A stretch of 64,000 nt of DNA from Escherichia coli (GTDB lineage Bacteria > Pseudomonadota > Gammaproteobacteria > Enterobacterales > Enterobacteriaceae), in the NCBI RefSeq assembly GCF_030384885.1, contig NZ_CP128613.1. One strand, given 5' to 3'. Under the pieces are notes generated by a model, which had not been told where the DNA came from, did not search any database, and saw nothing but the letters and a program-made list of their open reading frames with translations. Numbering within the stretch: the stretch's first letter is position 1; each line of letters starts with the position of its first letter. The translations under genes and the position numbers were made by a program. This document shows, in pieces, positions 41,117 to 50,527 of the stretch.

Positions 41117-41884
41117 ATGGCAGATACCTCTTCAACCACCGCTGGCGCACAAACGTTATTACGCGGGCTGGCGGTTCTTAATGCTGTTTATAACGGCTGC
41201 CATGACCTGAAAAGTATCGGCGAGTTCACCGGCACGACCCGGAGCACAACCCATCGTTTAGTCACCGTTCTGGTGGAACAACGCTACCTGCGCCACGTCC
41301 CAACGCAGGGCTACCAACTGGGCGCCAAACTGATCGAATTCGGTGCCAGAGCGCTGGAAAGCACCTCGCTGTACGAAATTGCGCTGCCCGTTTTGCAGCG
41401 TCTGGCCCGTTACACCCTGGACACCGTGCATCTGGGGATCGTTGAAGGCGACGAAGTGCTGTATCTGGAGAAGATCAACAGTCAGCGTGGGCTGGAAATG
41501 CGCTCACGCCCAGGCCATCGCATGCCACTGGCAATCACCGGCATCGGCAAGGCATTGATCCTCAACCGAACAGAAGAAGAGTGGCGCACGCTGTTTAAGA
41601 CCTGTGGTGATGAAACAAAACTGGGCACATTTATTCAGAACATGCGTCGTTATGCCGCCAGTGGTTTTGCTTTTGATCTGGAAGAGAACGAGCCGACTAT
41701 CCGTTGCGTTGCAGCGCCGGTTTACAACGCCCGGGATGAAATTGTGGCGGCTATTTCTGTCGCCAGTACCACTACGTATATGTCACTGGCGCGTCTGGAA
41801 GAACTGGCACCTTACGTCAAATCCTGTGCAGAAGAGATATCCGCTGAACTGGGCTGGGGTAAGCACGTCCGCAAAAATAAATAA
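41117..41884 (+). CDS. IclR-family transcriptional regulator
   Basis: 255-aa ORF from MADTSS with SD AGGAGA; N-terminal wHTH (LRGLAVLNAV...IGEFTGTTRSTTHRLVTVLVEQRYL) and C-terminal IclR effector domain pattern. Confidence 0.85.
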   Translation: MADTSSTTAGAQTLLRGLAVLNAVYNGCHDLKSIGEFTGTTRSTTHRLVTVLVEQRYLRHVPTQGYQLGAKLIEFGARALESTSLYEIALPVLQRLARYTLDTVHLGIVEGDEVLYLEKINSQRGLEMRSRPGHRMPLAITGIGKALILNRTEEEWRTLFKTCGDETKLGTFIQNMRRYAASGFAFDLEENEPTIRCVAAPVYNARDEIVAAISVASTTTYMSLARLEELAPYVKSCAEEISAELGWGKHVRKNK

Positions 41885-41907
41885 ACCATGACTAAAGGAA
41901 ACGGCTA

Positions 41908-42912
41908 ATGTCGGGAAACACCTCATTTATTGCCCTGGACTGGGGAACGTCATCGCTTCGGGCATGGCGTTTTGGCGACTCACCAAATCCACAAGAAAAA
42001 CGTGAATTCCCGTGGGGGATCATGAAATTACCCTCCCAGGCAGCAACACGTGAGGACGCTTTCCACGATACGTTTTTACGTGTCTGCGGCGACTGGCTGG
42101 CACAATCCCCATGCCCGATTCTGGCTTGCGGCATGATCGGCAGTGCGCAAGGGTGGCAACCCGCAGCTTATTTACCTTGCCCGGTCACTCTCGAGGGTCT
42201 GGCAAAGCAGTTGACGCCTGTTATCTACCAGCAGCAGACAATGCTGCACATCATTCCCGGCGTGATTAAAGAAGGTGAAATGCCCGAAGTGATGCGTGGC
42301 GAAGAGACACAAATCTTCGGTGCTATCTCGATGGAACCGGCCCTGCAAAACGCGCTCCGCCAGGGTATGCCTGTGCTGATTGGCTTACCTGGCACACATG
42401 CGAAATGGGCGGTAGTTGAAAACAACACCATTACCGATTTTCGAACCTTTATGACAGGCGAGTTATTTGATGTTTTATCCCGCCATTCGATTCTCGGTGC
42501 CACCATGCGTTCGGGAGATGAACCGCACTGGGATGCCTTCGCCCACGGGCTGACAGCGGCACAAGAGCATCATCAGACCGGATTATTATCGACGCTGTTT
42601 TCGACCCGTTCGCGCCTGCTGACCAGTAATCTTACGCCGTCCTCACAGGGGGATTACCTTTCAGGATTACTGATAGGCCATGAATTATGCGGTCTGGCAT
42701 CCAGTTTGCTACGTGATTTACCCGCCACAACACCGATCGCCTTAATCGGTAGCGCCACTCTGAACAGCCGCTATTCACAAGCATTCAGCCACGTTTTTCC
42801 CGACAGACAGCTACACGCCATTCCTAATGCCACTGAACAGGGGTTATGGCGAATCGCCCACGCTGCCGGGCTACTCTCCACCAACGCCAGGGAATGTACT
42901 CATGCCATTTAA
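41908..42912 (+). CDS. 2-dehydro-3-deoxygalactonokinase-like sugar-acid kinase (DgoK family)
   Basis: 334-aa ORF sharing the motifs I recall from DgoK: ALDWGTSSLRAW, MRGEETQ, PGTHAKW, FRTFMTGELF. Confidence 0.85.
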   Translation: MSGNTSFIALDWGTSSLRAWRFGDSPNPQEKREFPWGIMKLPSQAATREDAFHDTFLRVCGDWLAQSPCPILACGMIGSAQGWQPAAYLPCPVTLEGLAKQLTPVIYQQQTMLHIIPGVIKEGEMPEVMRGEETQIFGAISMEPALQNALRQGMPVLIGLPGTHAKWAVVENNTITDFRTFMTGELFDVLSRHSILGATMRSGDEPHWDAFAHGLTAAQEHHQTGLLSTLFSTRSRLLTSNLTPSSQGDYLSGLLIGHELCGLASSLLRDLPATTPIALIGSATLNSRYSQAFSHVFPDRQLHAIPNATEQGLWRIAHAAGLLSTNARECTHAI

Positions 42913-43531
42913 TACGCTTTTGCAAAAAACCGGGTTAGTCGCCATTTTACGCGGCGTGAAACCGGATGAGATTGTCGCCATCGGTGAAAAGCTGTATGCC
43001 GCTGGATTTCGCCTGATTGAGATTCCCATGAACTCGCCGGAGCCGTTGCAAAGTATCAGTTTACTGCGCGACGCCCTGCCTAAGGACTGCCTGGTCGGAG
43101 CCGGAACGGTGCTTTCGGTGGAGCAAGTCGTCGCGGTTAAAGAGGCTGGAGGCCAGATTATCGTAATGCCGCATTGCGATACTGCGGTGATCCGTCGTGC
43201 CCGTGCGCTGGGTATGTATTGTGCGCCTGGCGTCGCTACGCCCACCGAAGCTTTTGCTGCCATTGAACATGGCGCCAATGCCATCAAGCTGTTCCCGGCT
43301 GAACAAATTACGCCTGAAGTCACCAAAGCCTGGCGTGCGGTTATTCCACAATCCGTTCCGATGTTACCGGTTGGCGGTATCACTCCAGACACAATGGCGC
43401 GTTATCTGAGCCACGGCGCAAACGGCTTTGGCCTCGGTTCTGCGCTATATCGCCCCGGCATGACGCCAGAGCAAGTCTATGAAAATGCAGTACTGTTTAT
43501 GAACGCATGGAACAATTTAAATAGCAAATAA
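42902..43531 (+). CDS. 2-dehydro-3-deoxy-6-phosphogalactonate / KDPG-type aldolase (DgoA/Eda family)
   Basis: About 209-aa ORF from MPFNTLLQKTGLVAILRG; class I aldolase TIM-barrel pattern (EIPMNSP, GAGTV, KLFPA, GGIT). Start overlaps the kinase 3' end by 11 bp. Confidence 0.85.
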   Translation: MPFNTLLQKTGLVAILRGVKPDEIVAIGEKLYAAGFRLIEIPMNSPEPLQSISLLRDALPKDCLVGAGTVLSVEQVVAVKEAGGQIIVMPHCDTAVIRRARALGMYCAPGVATPTEAFAAIEHGANAIKLFPAEQITPEVTKAWRAVIPQSVPMLPVGGITPDTMARYLSHGANGFGLGSALYRPGMTPEQVYENAVLFMNAWNNLNSK

Positions 43532-43555
43532 CTGATAAATAAGGATATAAAAGCA

Positions 43556-44530
43556 ATGATAAAACATCTTACCTTACCGAAAAAAATGGCTGCAATGGTA
43601 CTTCTTGCCGGCGCTGCCCTCAGCACTGCGCCTGTGCAGGCGGCCTCCTGGCCAACCAAACAGATCGAGTTAGTCGTACCCTACGCGGCCGGAGGCGGTA
43701 CGGATCTGGTTGCCCGTGCCTTTGCTGATGCCGCCAAAAACCATTTGCCCGTCAGCATCGGGGTTATCAATAAACCTGGCGGTGGCGGCGCTATCGGCCT
43801 GAGTGAAATCGCCGCTGCCCGCCCTAACGGTTACAAAATGGGTTTAGGCACGGTTGAACTGACCACCCTTCCCAGTCTCGGAATGGTGCGTTTTAAAACC
43901 AGCGACTTTAAACCCATTGCCCGTCTGAATGCGGATCCTGCGGCTATCACCGTCCGTGCCGATGCACCGTGGAATAGCTATGAAGAATTTATGACTTACG
44001 CCAAAGCGAATCCCGGAAAAGTACGCATTGGTAACTCAGGCACCGGAGCAATCTGGCATCTGGCGGCAGCTGCACTGGAAGACAAAACGGGCGTGAAGTT
44101 TTCTCATGTCCCATATGACGGCGCAGCCCCTGCCATTACAGGCCTGTTAGGCGGGCATATTGAAGCGGTTTCCGTAAGCCCAGGTGAAGTTATCAATCAT
44201 GTGAAAGGCGGCAAGCTGAAGACACTGGTAGTGATGGCGGATGAACGTATGAAAACCATGCCTGACGTCCCGACGTTAAAAGAGAAAGGCGTTGATCTCT
44301 CCATCGGCACCTGGCGCGGCCTGATTGTGTCGCAAAAAACGCCGCAGGATGTGGTTGATGTTCTGGCTAAGGCCGCAAAAGAGACGGCTGAAGAGCCTGC
44401 ATTCCAGGATGCTCTGCAAAAGTTGAATCTCAACTATGCATGGCTTGATGGTGCCAGCTTCCAGACCCAAATCAACGAACAGGAAAAGTACTTTGACGAG
44501 TTACTAACTCGGCTGGGCTTGAAAAAATAA
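43556..44530 (+). CDS. tripartite tricarboxylate transporter substrate-binding protein (TctC/Bug family)
   Basis: 324-aa ORF with signal peptide (MIKHLTLPKKMAAMVLLAGAALSTAPVQA) and the TctC-type motifs ...VVPYAAGGGTD..., ...NKPGGGGAIG.... Confidence 0.85.
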   Translation: MIKHLTLPKKMAAMVLLAGAALSTAPVQAASWPTKQIELVVPYAAGGGTDLVARAFADAAKNHLPVSIGVINKPGGGGAIGLSEIAAARPNGYKMGLGTVELTTLPSLGMVRFKTSDFKPIARLNADPAAITVRADAPWNSYEEFMTYAKANPGKVRIGNSGTGAIWHLAAAALEDKTGVKFSHVPYDGAAPAITGLLGGHIEAVSVSPGEVINHVKGGKLKTLVVMADERMKTMPDVPTLKEKGVDLSIGTWRGLIVSQKTPQDVVDVLAKAAKETAEEPAFQDALQKLNLNYAWLDGASFQTQINEQEKYFDELLTRLGLKK

Positions 44531-44546
44531 TCCCGAGGTACGGTCG

Positions 44547-45053
44547 ATGAACACAAAACAGTCTGTTGCTCAACTCGCCGTACCGCACCGCAAGCGCTTT
44601 TCATCCACTGTGGTGGTGGCGCTGTTACTTTGTGTGGTTGCTGGCGCGGTGATAATTAATGCCGCTGATTTTCCAGCAACTGCCATTGAAACGGATCCCG
44701 GTGCAAGTGCCTTCCCTACTTTCTATGCCTGCGCTCTGATTGTGCTCGCTGTCTTACTGGTGATACGCGATCTTTTGCTGGCAAAACCAGTCCCTTGCGC
44801 CAACGCACAGGAAAAACCGGCATTCAGGAAAACGGCAACGGGAATTGCGGCAACCGCGTTTTATATTGTGGCGATGAGCTACTGCGGTTATCTCATTACT
44901 ACTCCTGTTTTCCTCATCGTCATTATGACGTTGATGGGCTACAGGCGATGGGTACTCACACCGGGTATTGCGCTGCTGTTAACGGCAATCCTCTGGTTGC
45001 TGTTTGTCGAAGCGTTACAGGTGCCATTGCCTGTCGGCACATTTTTCGAATAA
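44547..45053 (+). CDS. tripartite tricarboxylate transporter small membrane subunit (TctB-like)
   Basis: 168-aa hydrophobic protein with about 4 TM segments, positioned between tctC-like and tctA-like genes. Confidence 0.75.
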   Translation: MNTKQSVAQLAVPHRKRFSSTVVVALLLCVVAGAVIINAADFPATAIETDPGASAFPTFYACALIVLAVLLVIRDLLLAKPVPCANAQEKPAFRKTATGIAATAFYIVAMSYCGYLITTPVFLIVIMTLMGYRRWVLTPGIALLLTAILWLLFVEALQVPLPVGTFFE

Positions 45054-45065
45054 CAGGGGCCTGCA

Positions 45066-46556
45066 ATGTTTGAAAGTGAACTTTTAACTCAGGGGTTTTC
45101 GACATTACTCAGTAATCCTCAGGCGCTGCTGTTTGCCACGTTTGGAGTGATACTGGGTATTATGATTGGCGCTCTGCCTGGCCTGACAGCGACCATGGGT
45201 GTGGCGATTTTGCTGCCTTTCACCTACGGCATGGAGCCTGTTTCTGGCTTGTTGATGATTTGCGGTGTCTTTTTTGGTGGTGTGTATGGTGGTTCTATCA
45301 CCGCAATTTTGCTCAAAATTCCCGGTACGCCTGCCGCCGCTGCCACCGCCATTGACGGTTATGAGTTAACGAAGCAGGGAAAAGCCGGGCTGGCATTAAG
45401 TGCCGCCACGTTCTCTTCTTTTAGCGGTGGAACGCTCAGCATTATCGTATTGATGTTTCTCTCTCCGGTACTTGCCAGTTGGGCGTTGAAATTTAGTGCC
45501 TCGGAGTCCTTCGCCCTGGCAACCTTCGGACTAAGTATTATTGCCAGTATTTCCGGTGAGTCACTGATTAAAGGGCTGATTGCCGGGGTTGGCGGATTAC
45601 TGATCGCAACGATAGGCCTCGATCCGATGGGCGGTTTTCCACGCTTTACGGGCGGGTTTGTGGAACTGATGAATGTGCCATTTATCCCGGTGATGATTGG
45701 TCTGTTTGCTGCTTCAGAAGCGTTCCGTTCTATGGAACAAAATCAGCATATTCGTCAGAGCGCGAACGTGGCTATCGGCAGTCTGTTACTGCCCTGGCAA
45801 ACGCTACGCCGCATCGCATTAACCATTTTGCGCTCATCAGGATTAGGGGTTTTTATCGGCATGATCCCCGGTGCGGGGGCAGATATTGCAGCTTTTGTTG
45901 CCTATAACGAAACTCGTCGTTTCAGTAAGACGCCTGAAAACTTTGGTAAGGGTGAGATTAAGGCGGTGGCCTCCTGTGAGGCAGGCGCGAATGGCTGCAC
46001 CGGTGGCGCATTGTTACCTATGCTGACGTTGGGGATCCCAGGCGATGCGGTAACTGCCATCATGCTGGGCGCGTTAACGTTACAAGGGATGCAGCCAGGC
46101 CCACTGATGTTTACCGACCACGGCGATATGGTTTATACGCTGTTTGTCGGCATGATCTTTTGTTACTTCATGCTGCTAGTTCTTGGACTGCTCTCTTTGA
46201 AAGTCATCGGTAACGTGGTGAAGATCCCCGGCAATATTCTCACGCCGATGATCCTCGCACTTTGTGTGGTCGGGACTTATGCGTTGAACAATAGCCTGTT
46301 TGATGTTGGCATTATGCTGATTGCAGGCGTGGTGGGCTATTTCATGCAAAAAGGGGGGTATCCGGCATCACCCGTAGTGCTGGCATTGATTATGGGGCCA
46401 ATGGCGGAAAGTAATTTTCGCCGTGCGCTGTCGCTTTCTGGTGGGTCACTCGACTTTCTGTATACCCGACCGATAACCCTGGCATTGCTGACACTGGCAG
46501 CCTTTACGCTACTGACGCCAATAATACGCAAAATTATGCGCTTACGGCGTCAGTAA
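45066..46556 (+). CDS. tripartite tricarboxylate transporter large permease (TctA family)
   Basis: 496-aa polytopic membrane protein with Gly-rich TM segments typical of TctA (GALPGLTATMGVAILLPFTYGM, GGSITAILLKIPGTPAAAAT). Confidence 0.9.
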   Translation: MFESELLTQGFSTLLSNPQALLFATFGVILGIMIGALPGLTATMGVAILLPFTYGMEPVSGLLMICGVFFGGVYGGSITAILLKIPGTPAAAATAIDGYELTKQGKAGLALSAATFSSFSGGTLSIIVLMFLSPVLASWALKFSASESFALATFGLSIIASISGESLIKGLIAGVGGLLIATIGLDPMGGFPRFTGGFVELMNVPFIPVMIGLFAASEAFRSMEQNQHIRQSANVAIGSLLLPWQTLRRIALTILRSSGLGVFIGMIPGAGADIAAFVAYNETRRFSKTPENFGKGEIKAVASCEAGANGCTGGALLPMLTLGIPGDAVTAIMLGALTLQGMQPGPLMFTDHGDMVYTLFVGMIFCYFMLLVLGLLSLKVIGNVVKIPGNILTPMILALCVVGTYALNNSLFDVGIMLIAGVVGYFMQKGGYPASPVVLALIMGPMAESNFRRALSLSGGSLDFLYTRPITLALLTLAAFTLLTPIIRKIMRLRRQ

Positions 46557-48605: not shown

Positions 48606-48996
48606 TTTCCTCTTATTCTATATTTGAGATGGTGAGTGAACGAATGCGTTTTGCTGCCATCTCTGTCCCCCAAAAAATAATCAGTATGAATTGATTGGAG
48701 AGCACGACTCCGCTATTTGACCTTAAGAAAGTCGGCAAGTCATAGTCATAAATGAGTCTCTTCACTGGCAGACACCTTAAAGATTTACCATCAACTCCCA
48801 TTCTCAAACAAACATTAATTATTATCAACACATTCACATTAATTATAAATTACCTCAGACCTTCCTGATAAAAAGATATTAAAGTGAAACATTTTGTTTT
48901 TCACATTTTAGTTCATCCCTTTTAGGCGTAAATAAAGGTAAAAAATAACAATACTATTTTTCTTTCACAAAAAAATTAACAAAAGGTTTTTCAAGG

Positions 48997-50145
48997 ATGA
49001 GTGATATTATCTACCTGACCATAACCGGAGAACAACACGGATGTATTTCCTCTCGTTGTGGAACGAGCACATCAATAGGTAATCGCTGGCAGATTGGTCA
49101 TGAAGATGAAATCTTCGCATTCTCGCTCTCTAATAGTATTACGAATACAGGAAAAGGGTCACATTTGCATGGCCTTAGTTTCTGTAAGTTGATTGACAAA
49201 AGCTCCCCGTTACTTATTAACGCTATTAACAATAACGAGCAGTTGTTCATGGAGTTTGACTTCTATCGGATCAATAGATTTGGTCGATGGGAGAAATATT
49301 ACAACATTCAACTCCGCGGCGCGCTCTTATCAGCAATCAATCACCTGTTTACGGAGAACAATCTGGATACAGAAACCATCACTGTCAGTTATGAATATAT
49401 ACTCTCCAGGCATCTGATTGCTAATACTGAATTTAGTTATTTGGCATTTCCCGATAACTACAATCGTCTGTTTATACCACGGCCAAAAACTAAAGATGAT
49501 AATGGCCTCAAAACACTCAATAGTAAAGCTGTTGGCAGACTGCTTGCTGCTGGCGGCATATACAATGGGAATATCGAAGGATTCAGGGAAACAGCAAACA
49601 AGTTGGGGGGAGATGCACCTGCTGGTTACGATCAAGTTATGGATAACAAAGGGTTACTCATCGCTGGTGCTTCAATAGTTGCTGGAGCAGTTCTGGGGAG
49701 AATGAGACTCCCTGATTTGGAATCACTTGAGCATTTCGGAGCCAGAGGAGCAGTATCAGGAAGACCATTTAATCCCGACCTTGCCGGTGGTCCAATAGAA
49801 AATCTGACGACAGATGGCGTAACAATCAACAGGGAAGGTATCGCTATTGTTGAAAAACACATAGCCAGATTTGGTCATGACCCTGTAAATGAAGTGATGA
49901 TCAATAGACTGAAAGACATTGAGAAAGGAAAAATCCCCCCAGAACAAGTAGATCTTAACTTCTATACTCATGAATGTCGGGAATATCAGCGTTACTGTAA
50001 TCTTGGTTGGGAAACAGGACAACCTGATGGTGACGCAGGCTATGCACTCTGGAATCATACGCATACTGCTACTCTAGAAGATTATAAACTTAAGGGAGAA
50101 CTTAATGACTTATACCACCAGGACGCACTTGACTATGATAACTGA
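48997..50145 (+). CDS. Hcp (T6SS tube protein, TssD) fused to a C-terminal extension; candidate evolved-Hcp toxin effector
   Basis: 382-aa ORF. The N-terminal ~160 aa follow the Hcp pattern (ITGEQHG...NRW..GHEDEIFAFS...KLIDKSSPLLINAI...EFDFYRIN) as I recall it; then a Gly-rich linker and a ~130-aa His/Cys-containing C-terminal region. Low GC and AT-rich upstream region. Confidence 0.8.
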   Translation: MSDIIYLTITGEQHGCISSRCGTSTSIGNRWQIGHEDEIFAFSLSNSITNTGKGSHLHGLSFCKLIDKSSPLLINAINNNEQLFMEFDFYRINRFGRWEKYYNIQLRGALLSAINHLFTENNLDTETITVSYEYILSRHLIANTEFSYLAFPDNYNRLFIPRPKTKDDNGLKTLNSKAVGRLLAAGGIYNGNIEGFRETANKLGGDAPAGYDQVMDNKGLLIAGASIVAGAVLGRMRLPDLESLEHFGARGAVSGRPFNPDLAGGPIENLTTDGVTINREGIAIVEKHIARFGHDPVNEVMINRLKDIEKGKIPPEQVDLNFYTHECREYQRYCNLGWETGQPDGDAGYALWNHTHTATLEDYKLKGELNDLYHQDALDYDN

Positions 50146-50380
50146 AACTGAAATTAACATACTGAAAGTTATGGCTGAGAAAGATATAAACTGGAACTGG
50201 ATGAATCTCGATCGCACACTATCTATAAGGCAAATTCCAGGATTCGGTAATGTTGTTAACATTGTTAACAAATTAGCTAACGAGGGTTTGGTTATTATTG
50301 AGGATAGCGGACATAAGTCTATGCCTCACTACCACGTTACTGATAAGGGATACAATCTCGTGAAAAGTGAGAATAAATAA
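50135..50380 (+). CDS. small protein downstream of the Hcp fusion; candidate immunity protein (alternative: small wHTH-like protein)
   Basis: 81-aa ORF (MITETEINILKVMAEKD...), or 91 aa from the upstream ATG at 50105. Its start overlaps the Hcp-fusion stop (ATGATAACTGA), the arrangement seen in toxin/immunity pairs. Confidence 0.5.
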   Translation: MITETEINILKVMAEKDINWNWMNLDRTLSIRQIPGFGNVVNIVNKLANEGLVIIEDSGHKSMPHYHVTDKGYNLVKSENK

Positions 50381-50527
50381 CGTAGCGTTGATTACTGAAC
50401 AAATCGCTCAGGATTATATTTTGCGAAAAAAATGATTCGGTTATTTCTGTGTCTGAACGGCCGCAGATAGCAAAATGGCTTCCGGTGATGGAAGCCATCA
50501 GATTATTGGCAAAGTGCGTGTTGTTCA

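Follow-up and report, generated by a model that had tools for sequence, protein, structure and literature searches.

A 64,000-nucleotide stretch of the Escherichia coli chromosome (contig NZ_CP128613.1, assembly GCF_030384885.1; hereafter the window), which has matches in 5,425 of 5,426 complete genomes, contains a gene in which Hcp, the tube protein of type VI secretion systems (T6SS), continues into a long C-terminal extension. This raises the question of what the extension does and how the producing cell is spared. An original prediction, made from the DNA letters, held that the protein ends in a His-Me finger (HNH-like) nuclease. Here we propose, with a probability of about 0.5, that the fusion and the small gene behind it are an orphan 'specialised Hcp' effector–immunity pair, the toxin being a helical domain of the class found in pyocin G (PyoG), pyocin SX2 and carocin D, and a probable nuclease. 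Judged from the sequences, what is new is an Hcp effector with an extended C-terminal toxin (Hcp-ET) that appears to carry a pyocin G/carocin D-class killing domain and to pair with a distinct, winged-helix immunity partner. The parts of the locus are as follows.

48997..50145, plus strand: Hcp–toxin fusion gene, an open reading frame (ORF) of 382 amino acids plus stop
48997..49437, plus strand: Hcp/TssD tube-protein domain, residues 1–147, from matches to TIGR03344, PF05638 and PDB Hcp chains
49438..49731, plus strand: linker or pre-toxin region, residues 148–245, between the Hcp and toxin domains
49732..50142, plus strand: C-terminal toxin domain, residues 246–382 (conserved core 246–378), from homologue search, alignment and AlphaFold2 (AF2) modelling
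50135..50380, plus strand: predicted cognate immunity gene, 81 amino acids, winged-helix, from the PGAP gene call, synteny and modelling

TIGR03344 matches residues 1–147 of the fusion protein with 121.6 bits against a cut-off of 58.9 (E = 2.9e-35), PF05638 covers residues 6–135, and the PDB Hcp chains 6a2v and 3he1 match the same N-terminal domain. Over the whole protein Hcp is the sole Pfam family found, and a Pyocin_S/inner-membrane-translocation (IMT) domain is absent. Beyond the Hcp domain the extension is 235 residues long with the toxin domain at its end, and the start of the downstream gene overlaps the toxin stop by 11 nucleotides. In published accounts an Hcp-ET effector is Hcp extended at its C terminus by a toxin, with its immunity gene following downstream and the locus often an orphan (PMC6730261, PMC6099711). 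The window protein shares the architecture, orphan location and downstream immunity gene of those described by Ma et al. in Enterobacteriaceae: it has a TIGR03344 domain, an extension of >60 amino acids that carries a toxin and, directly downstream, an immunity gene predicted from the overlap, synteny and co-folding. The Pfam families by which the five described Hcp-ET clans are defined, however, give no match to its C-terminal domain.

An exhaustive homologue search with residues 237–382 (E ≤ 1e-3) returned 473 cluster representatives that match the toxin domain, always at or near the C terminus of host proteins of about 130 to >5,000 amino acids. The conserved domain spans about residues 246–378, close to the 250–382 first suggested. 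In an alignment of 58 diverse homologues (pairwise identity <62%), eight residues are invariant (H288, F292, D319, H325, E326, E329, W352 and H356) and R291, R304, Y323, R328 and R332 are nearly so. The window copy is intact and carries all eight. AF2 models the domain as built of helices (residues 279–292, 296–309, 317–335 and 345–362) with a pLDDT of 93.7 and a pTM of 0.87. Residues 317–362 form two long helices and their joining loop, with H325, E326 and E329 in one long helix, and the domain as a whole is predicted to be all-helical. No relative was found in the PDB, and none of the structurally known cytotoxic domains of bacteriocins resembles the predicted fold, in agreement with the published finding that the predicted structure of SX2 resembles no known bacteriocin domain (PMC10422930). 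Pfam, NCBIfam, PADLOC and PHROGs gave nothing on the toxin domain, their hits being to Hcp and, for one PHROG match, to the linker only.

Positions of invariant residues, plus strand: H288 at 49858; D319 at 49951; H325–E326 at 49969–49974; E329 at 49981; W352 at 50050; H356 at 50062
49957..50070, plus strand: peptide quoted in the original prediction, NFYTHECREYQRYCNLGWETGQPDGDAGYALWNHTHTA, residues 321–358 of the 382-residue ORF, in frame

This peptide takes in helix 3 (H325, E326 and E329), a loop and the beginning of helix 4 (W352 and H356), and the residues singled out in it are placed as described: His325, Asn335 ten residues on, and His354 and His356 a further 19 and 21 residues on, with Cys327 and Cys334 between the first two. 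They differ sharply in conservation. H325 and H356 are present in 58 of 58 homologues, whereas the others are lineage-specific: position 335 is Asn in 13 of 58 and mostly Arg or Lys otherwise, position 354 is His in 4 of 58 and mostly Asn or Asp otherwise, and positions 327 and 334 are Cys in 4 of 58. Half of the invariant set had gone unflagged. In a His-Me finger, His325 would be the general base, Asn335 the brace of the hairpin, and His354 and His356 metal ligands. The spacing for this exists in the window; H-x8-12-N-x15-22-H occurs in 32% of shuffles of residues 202–382, and with an HxH cluster in 1.1%, and the pattern alone is weak evidence. NCBI/PGAP also puts the label 'HNH endonuclease' on fragments of the domain, a label repeated in the carocin S3 paper. 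The AF2 model, however, has no β-hairpin around the candidate residues, the window sequence has no match to a Pfam family of the HNH or Colicin-DNase kind even at E ≤ 10, and the only trace of HNH among the 58 homologues is a single HNH_4 match (E = 0.096). Because fold, conservation and profile tests gave no HNH support, the label is not backed by any feature tested, and we consider a His-Me finger highly improbable.

The HNH DNases of colicins and pyocins (colicins E7 and E9; pyocins S1, S2, AP41, S8 and SX1) are likewise killing domains with conserved histidines and an immunity protein of ~10 kDa, and their presumed target is likewise cytoplasmic nucleic acid. In contrast to them, the window domain has no ββα-metal fold, HH-N-H conservation or profile match, toxins of its family are acidic and not basic, and its immunity fold is different. 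Public names for the domain conflict with one another ('HNH endonuclease', 'colicin', 'klebicin D activity protein', 'Colicin-D' and 'colicin-like bacteriocin tRNase domain-containing protein'); neither these nor 'MarR family transcriptional regulator', the NCBI name of the immunity protein, are backed by the tests run, and the first is spreading in databases without foundation. HEPN, HD-domain, hemerythrin and MazG-like readings were dropped, with no motif or fold to support them.

What the domain is likely to be emerged from its immunity proteins. The cytotoxic domain of SX2 and PyoG is homologous to those of carocins D and S3 (PMC10422930), and the class, which has no homology to other pyocin killing domains, is served by immunity proteins of 85–90 amino acids (PMC10422930, PMC7322526, PMC7461348). 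ImSX2 has 87 amino acids, and its cloning primers encode an N-terminal MLDLEG and a C-terminal EKKYGIV (PMC10422930). An Enterobacter immunity ORF (locus L082) reads (M)MLDLEGIYKNES...KGPNWKEPKFVTEKKYGIK: it is 87 amino acids long from its second Met, starts (M)MLDLEG and ends EKKYGIK. In a Pectobacterium carotovorum genome a broken toxin copy is followed by MLDIESIYKNES...EKKYGIK. Because both termini and the length match these bacteriocin-type ORFs, ImSX2 is, by sequence, a member of the immunity family that always follows the bacteriocin form of the toxin domain. From this match we assign the domain to the PyoG/SX2/carocin D class, an assignment that we hold to be very probable.

The window domain would accordingly share with PyoG, SX2 and carocins D and S3 a C-terminal killing-domain family of ~135–150 amino acids, for which there is no Pfam model and, among known bacteriocin domains, no structural relative, and a small immunity gene (~81–96 amino acids) that follows it. 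Homologues with the S-type layout have the domain at the C terminus directly after PF06958, with a lysis gene in the operons on Col plasmids. S-type bacteriocins carry receptor-binding, translocation and Pyocin_S/IMT domains, whereas the window protein has Hcp and a hydrophobic linker; and the window toxin pairs with a winged-helix immunity protein, the S-type forms with a 'KGPNWKEP..EKKYGI' family. No immunity ORF in the collection had the mass of 10,218.9 Da that electrospray ionization mass spectrometry gave for carocin S3I. Two candidate relatives were rejected. The mutagenesis and cloning primers for YPK_0952, a PAAR-pyocin-like DNase of Yersinia pseudotuberculosis that had seemed a relative with experiments behind it, translate to HWKKHGSEFPELTNSKEYVDATHDF and the C terminus DKMDYWNDQ, a different toxin domain, and carocin S2 is colicin D-like and of another family.

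We analysed the ORF directly 3′ of the toxin domain in 79 loci and found two immunity families. A winged-helix type of 77–90 amino acids follows the toxin in 42–44 of the 79, across many phyla, with the pattern ..DG.W.WY.LdR......GLV....P.Y.iT..G..lL; the 81-residue ORF of the window belongs to it, and every Hcp, DUF8093, RHS and cyanobacterial form analysed pairs with this type. In all 23 bacteriocin-type loci the toxin is directly followed by a protein of 85–96 amino acids with the consensus M.D....KNE..DVILFL....YP.LDR....KGPNWKEP.FV.EKKYGI. Aligned with hhalign, the winged-helix family and the ImSX2-type family (alignments A3 and A4) are collinear over 54 columns and have an aromatic-x-LDR motif in common (probability 23%, P = 9e-4), so that the two may be very distant relatives and not independent recruits.

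The window immunity protein gives weak hits to PadR, HTH_45 and DUF4364. To model the pair, toxin and immunity protein were fused through a (GGGGS)6 linker in a paired alignment of 35 loci. The fused AF2 model has a pTM of 0.81 and a mean pLDDT of 85.8, with only the artificial linker disordered, and its immunity part has the topology H-H-H-E-E-H. So high a pTM for a two-body construct suggests that the complex is confidently placed. The 81-residue protein is likely to be the cognate immunity protein. Small winged-helix proteins of the PadR, HTH_45 and MarR-like kinds have the same topology. The window type differs from them in being ~80 amino acids long, in having no dimerization helices, in always standing directly after the toxin and in its predicted docking onto it, and is for these reasons more likely to be an immunity protein than a regulator. 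With a killing-domain class and an adjoining immunity gene, the broader part of the original prediction, that the C-terminal region is a T6SS-cargo toxin domain, holds up well.

The toxin domain is found on many carriers: Hcp, DUF8093 (PF26362), PAAR, RHS/YD-repeat and LysM-containing proteins, 5,000-residue proteins, S-type bacteriocins and stand-alone ORFs. Foldseek searches of AFDB50 placed it at the end of proteins named 'Pyosin/cloacin translocation domain' and 'S-type pyocin domain' in Pseudomonas, Serratia, Salmonella, Klebsiella, Morganella and Yersinia pestis, and also in a PAAR protein, RHS proteins, DUF8093 proteins and a ferredoxin-fused Pectobacterium protein. In a second homologue search, PF06958 (Pyocin_S) lies directly upstream of the domain in many proteins of Serratia, Pseudomonas, Salmonella and Klebsiella. 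Comparison with plasmids by tblastn gave 35 records with the domain, among them 7-kb E. coli and 3.8–5.8-kb Klebsiella Col-type plasmids with a bacteriocin–immunity–lysis operon. A scan of species-representative genomes confirmed 210 sites in many phyla, spanning Enterobacterales, Pseudomonas, Burkholderiales, Dyella, Chromobacterium and many Cyanobacteria, as well as Planctomycetes, Kordia, one Acidobacteriota metagenome-assembled genome and Rhodobacterales; RHS/YD-repeat carriers were confirmed for some sites. Because one domain has been recombined onto unrelated delivery domains, with varying immunity genes, these sequences identify it as a polymorphic toxin module.

Some of these loci have features of their own. 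Two of the plasmids, the 6,995-bp E. coli plasmid pS19_141-d (L084) and a 5,783-bp Klebsiella variicola plasmid (L085), encode uncharacterized colicin- or klebicin-like bacteriocins of 747 and 780 amino acids that end in the domain and are accompanied by a 'KGPNWKEP..KKYGI' immunity gene and a lysis gene; in L085 an additional 'bacteriocin immunity protein' gene stands between the two. Many cyanobacterial loci (L031–L036, L039, L042–L046, L052–L054, L062 and L072) have the domain as a stand-alone ORF of ~135–145 amino acids followed by a winged-helix immunity gene, an arrangement that resembles a toxin–antitoxin pair. The Microcoleus immunity proteins among them (L031–L036) have a C-terminal extension that looks HicB-like by eye only (..YSAYVPDLPGCVATG..). 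Pectobacterium carotovorum GCA_030268765.1 has an HNH-type S-pyocin that is intact, with a Colicin_Pyocin immunity gene of its own, and 3′ of the two lies a broken orphan cassette (L086:4665–5590). The cassette is made up of a fragment of Pyocin_S, a toxin domain of the present family broken by a stop and an intact 87-residue immunity gene, and has the look of a C-terminal module that recombination displaced and left behind.

Between Hcp and the toxin, the linker has two further features.

49507–49704, plus strand: conserved linker segment, residues 171–236, from matches to phrog_31266 and phrog_14497
49648–49710, plus strand: Gly/Ala-rich hydrophobic stretch, residues ~218–238, from the Kyte–Doolittle profile

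Both phage families match the linker only, over ~65 residues (E ~1e-15), past which the phage proteins, of unassigned function, run on with other sequence; this suggests a reusable pre-toxin module shared with prophage-encoded toxins. The same segment is kept in relatives of the Hcp, DUF8093 and 348-residue types. A search of phage genomes with the linker returned one mislabelled Salmonella Hcp record and nothing else. The Kyte–Doolittle maximum of the linker over 19 residues is 1.6, at residues 220–238. 

By analogy with Hcp-ET effectors, the Hcp domain would be built into the tube of a T6SS encoded elsewhere and carry the extension into a neighbouring bacterium. There the toxin would act in the cytoplasm: bacteriocin forms of the domain always carry the Pyocin_S IMT domain, and PyoG needs its IMT domain and FtsH to reach the cytoplasm, the IMT domain having been linked to cytoplasm-acting nucleases (PMC9040868). 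In the Hcp form the linker with its Gly/Ala-rich stretch would replace the IMT domain, and it may aid passage across the inner membrane. In the model, the predicted catalytic site is a metal-centred cluster on three helices, made of H288, D319, H325/E326/E329 (an HExxE turn) and H356 and ringed by conserved Arg and Tyr. The invariant residues and five conserved Arg suggest a metal-dependent hydrolase that acts on a phosphorylated substrate, most likely a nuclease. The reaction would most likely be phosphodiester hydrolysis of nucleic acid. DNA ranks first among the candidate substrates, since DNase activity has been reported for carocins D and S3: that of carocin S3 is inhibited by the cognate immunity protein (PMC7461348), and that of carocin D is given by a citation in PMC7322526. 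The nuclease part of the original prediction thus draws support from two class members, while for the window protein we still infer the reaction and substrate. The producer would be protected by the 81-residue winged-helix protein, for which the modelling predicts docking onto the toxin domain.

Several observations weigh against this effector–immunity reading, and they bear on its class, its chemistry and the state of the gene. The link to the class runs through the immunity-protein match and the literature and not through a toxin-to-toxin alignment with PyoG (ETV05907.1), SX2 (EHF11209.1) or carocin D (ADH95192.1), and the window's own immunity protein is of a different family from ImSX2 and does not have the ImSX2/ImG/CaroDI-type sequence. 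The toxin homologues are acidic to neutral (median pI 6.0; 78% below 7), whereas classic nuclease colicin domains are basic; the pyocin-type immunity proteins lean basic (median pI 7.95), and an acidic toxin with a basic immunity protein is the reverse of the colicin DNase–Im pairs. SX2, moreover, was inactive as a DNase whether given Mg, Zn or Ni, and it inhibited in vitro transcription–translation by only 50% (PMC10422930), which conflicts with the carocin D and S3 reports and makes the substrate uncertain. The same toxin family, delivered in the same way, might instead attack RNA or the translation machinery as a tRNase- or rRNase-like enzyme: the acidic-to-neutral pI speaks against non-specific DNA binding, the invariant His/Glu/Arg set would also fit acid–base RNase chemistry, and some members bear the tRNase name, which may stem from other parts of those proteins. 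Yet the SX2 effect is weak (50% against 97% for colicin D) and was obtained with protein refolded from 6 M guanidine, the two carocins are reported to degrade DNA, and the domain has no similarity to known RNase folds; this remains a real but minority prospect. An activity other than nuclease, for which the conflicting reports leave space, would be that of a metallohydrolase, for example a zincin-like peptidase variant, that hits a cytoplasmic protein or metabolite. The acidic pI fits such an enzyme, and the geometry, in which one helix bears the invariant H-E-x-x-E and the next an invariant His, is like that of gluzincins, the HExxH+E peptidases; the metal would be bound by H325 and E329, with H356 as the third ligand, and E326 would serve as catalytic base (HExxE for HExxH). 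The motif is nevertheless invariably HExxE and not HExxH, neither a Pfam peptidase hit nor a zincin structural match was obtained, and the IMT domain, which published work ties to nucleases, is present in all bacteriocin forms, so we think a zincin-like enzyme unlikely. For the activity alone, DNA cleavage has the largest share, somewhat short of an even chance; RNA or translation comes next, another metallohydrolase has a clearly smaller share, and what is left falls to other activities or none. More tentatively, the whole class, the Hcp fusion included, might be an undescribed all-helical metalloenzyme fold with an HExxE...H site and a specific target in translation or elsewhere in the cytoplasm, rather than an agent of bulk DNA degradation, with the winged-helix protein as a second immunity family, either independently recruited or distant kin of the ImSX2 type.

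The remaining objections concern the gene as it stands in E. coli. Its closest published counterpart, 'Hcp3' of the porcine extraintestinal pathogenic E. coli PCN033 (WP_001280045), is the same gene of 1149 bp at the same site between ysgA and metE, with 375 of 382 residues identical (98%). Peng (2016) deleted '1149 bp of hcp3', noted that its second half 'showed no homology', and published Hcp3 as an Hcp paralogue that affects invasion and colonization, with no toxin or immunity function proposed (PMC4882540). In the Δhcp3 strain, killing of E. coli W3110 was not measurably reduced and host-cell invasion was reduced (PMC4882540). The annotation of the matching genome shows no T6SS cluster or T6SS genes in the window, and the gene is damaged elsewhere: IS2, IS903B or IS1 insertions disrupt it in several other strains, and in NZ_CP027579.1, the nearest complete genome, PGAP flags the tssD gene as a 'frameshifted' pseudogene, the sole difference from the window locus over 1384 aligned nucleotides being C5 for C6 in one homopolymer.

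49930..49935, plus strand: C6 homopolymer within the toxin domain; C5 in NZ_CP027579.1

Taken together, such findings could mean that the protein serves chiefly as a structural or host-directed Hcp, as the loss of PK-15 invasion and colonization with W3110 killing kept would have it, its C-terminal half not being antibacterial, or else that the locus is a decaying remnant. Against this, the window copy is intact with every invariant residue in place, and toxin and immunity gene are kept together in many phyla as well as in true colicin operons; killing by PCN033 was assayed on a single prey strain under a single condition, and the loss of hcp2 masks tube function. We regard a mainly structural or host-directed Hcp3, or a decaying one, as quite unlikely and prefer the effector–immunity pair. 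The C5/C6 difference itself may reflect an error in sequencing, variation between strains or a switch that is prone to slippage.

A gene whose locus is at least 80% present in 822 of 5,426 complete E. coli genomes (about 15%), and published as the virulence-associated 'Hcp3', would on this account be re-read as a toxin–immunity pair, which changes how the hcp3 phenotypes are interpreted. One domain with no Pfam entry or solved structure would link an Hcp effector, the colicin-type plasmids of E. coli and Klebsiella, S-type pyocins and cyanobacterial RHS toxins, and PyoG and SX2 are S-type pyocins under development as therapeutics. The invariant residues H288, D319, H325, E326, E329 and H356, in a pair native to E. 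coli, offer a convenient system for the contradictory activities reported for the class.

The pair lies in an insertion that holds the hcp fusion and the immunity gene and nothing else.

48606..50500, no strand assigned: low-GC insertion between ysgA and metE, from the composition profile and the annotation of the matching genome

Its GC content is 34–46%, against about 55% in the flanks by the composition profile, and because the hcp island is low in GC a horizontal origin is suggested. A promoter and terminator scan performed no better than on shuffles. Elsewhere in the window, positions 41117–46556, between rmuC and udp, encode an IclR regulator, a 2-dehydro-3-deoxygalactonokinase, the matching aldolase and a TctCBA tripartite tricarboxylate transporter. 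The genes rmuC and udp presumably adjoin each other in K-12, and the block may represent a second insertion of accessory genes, close to the hcp island.

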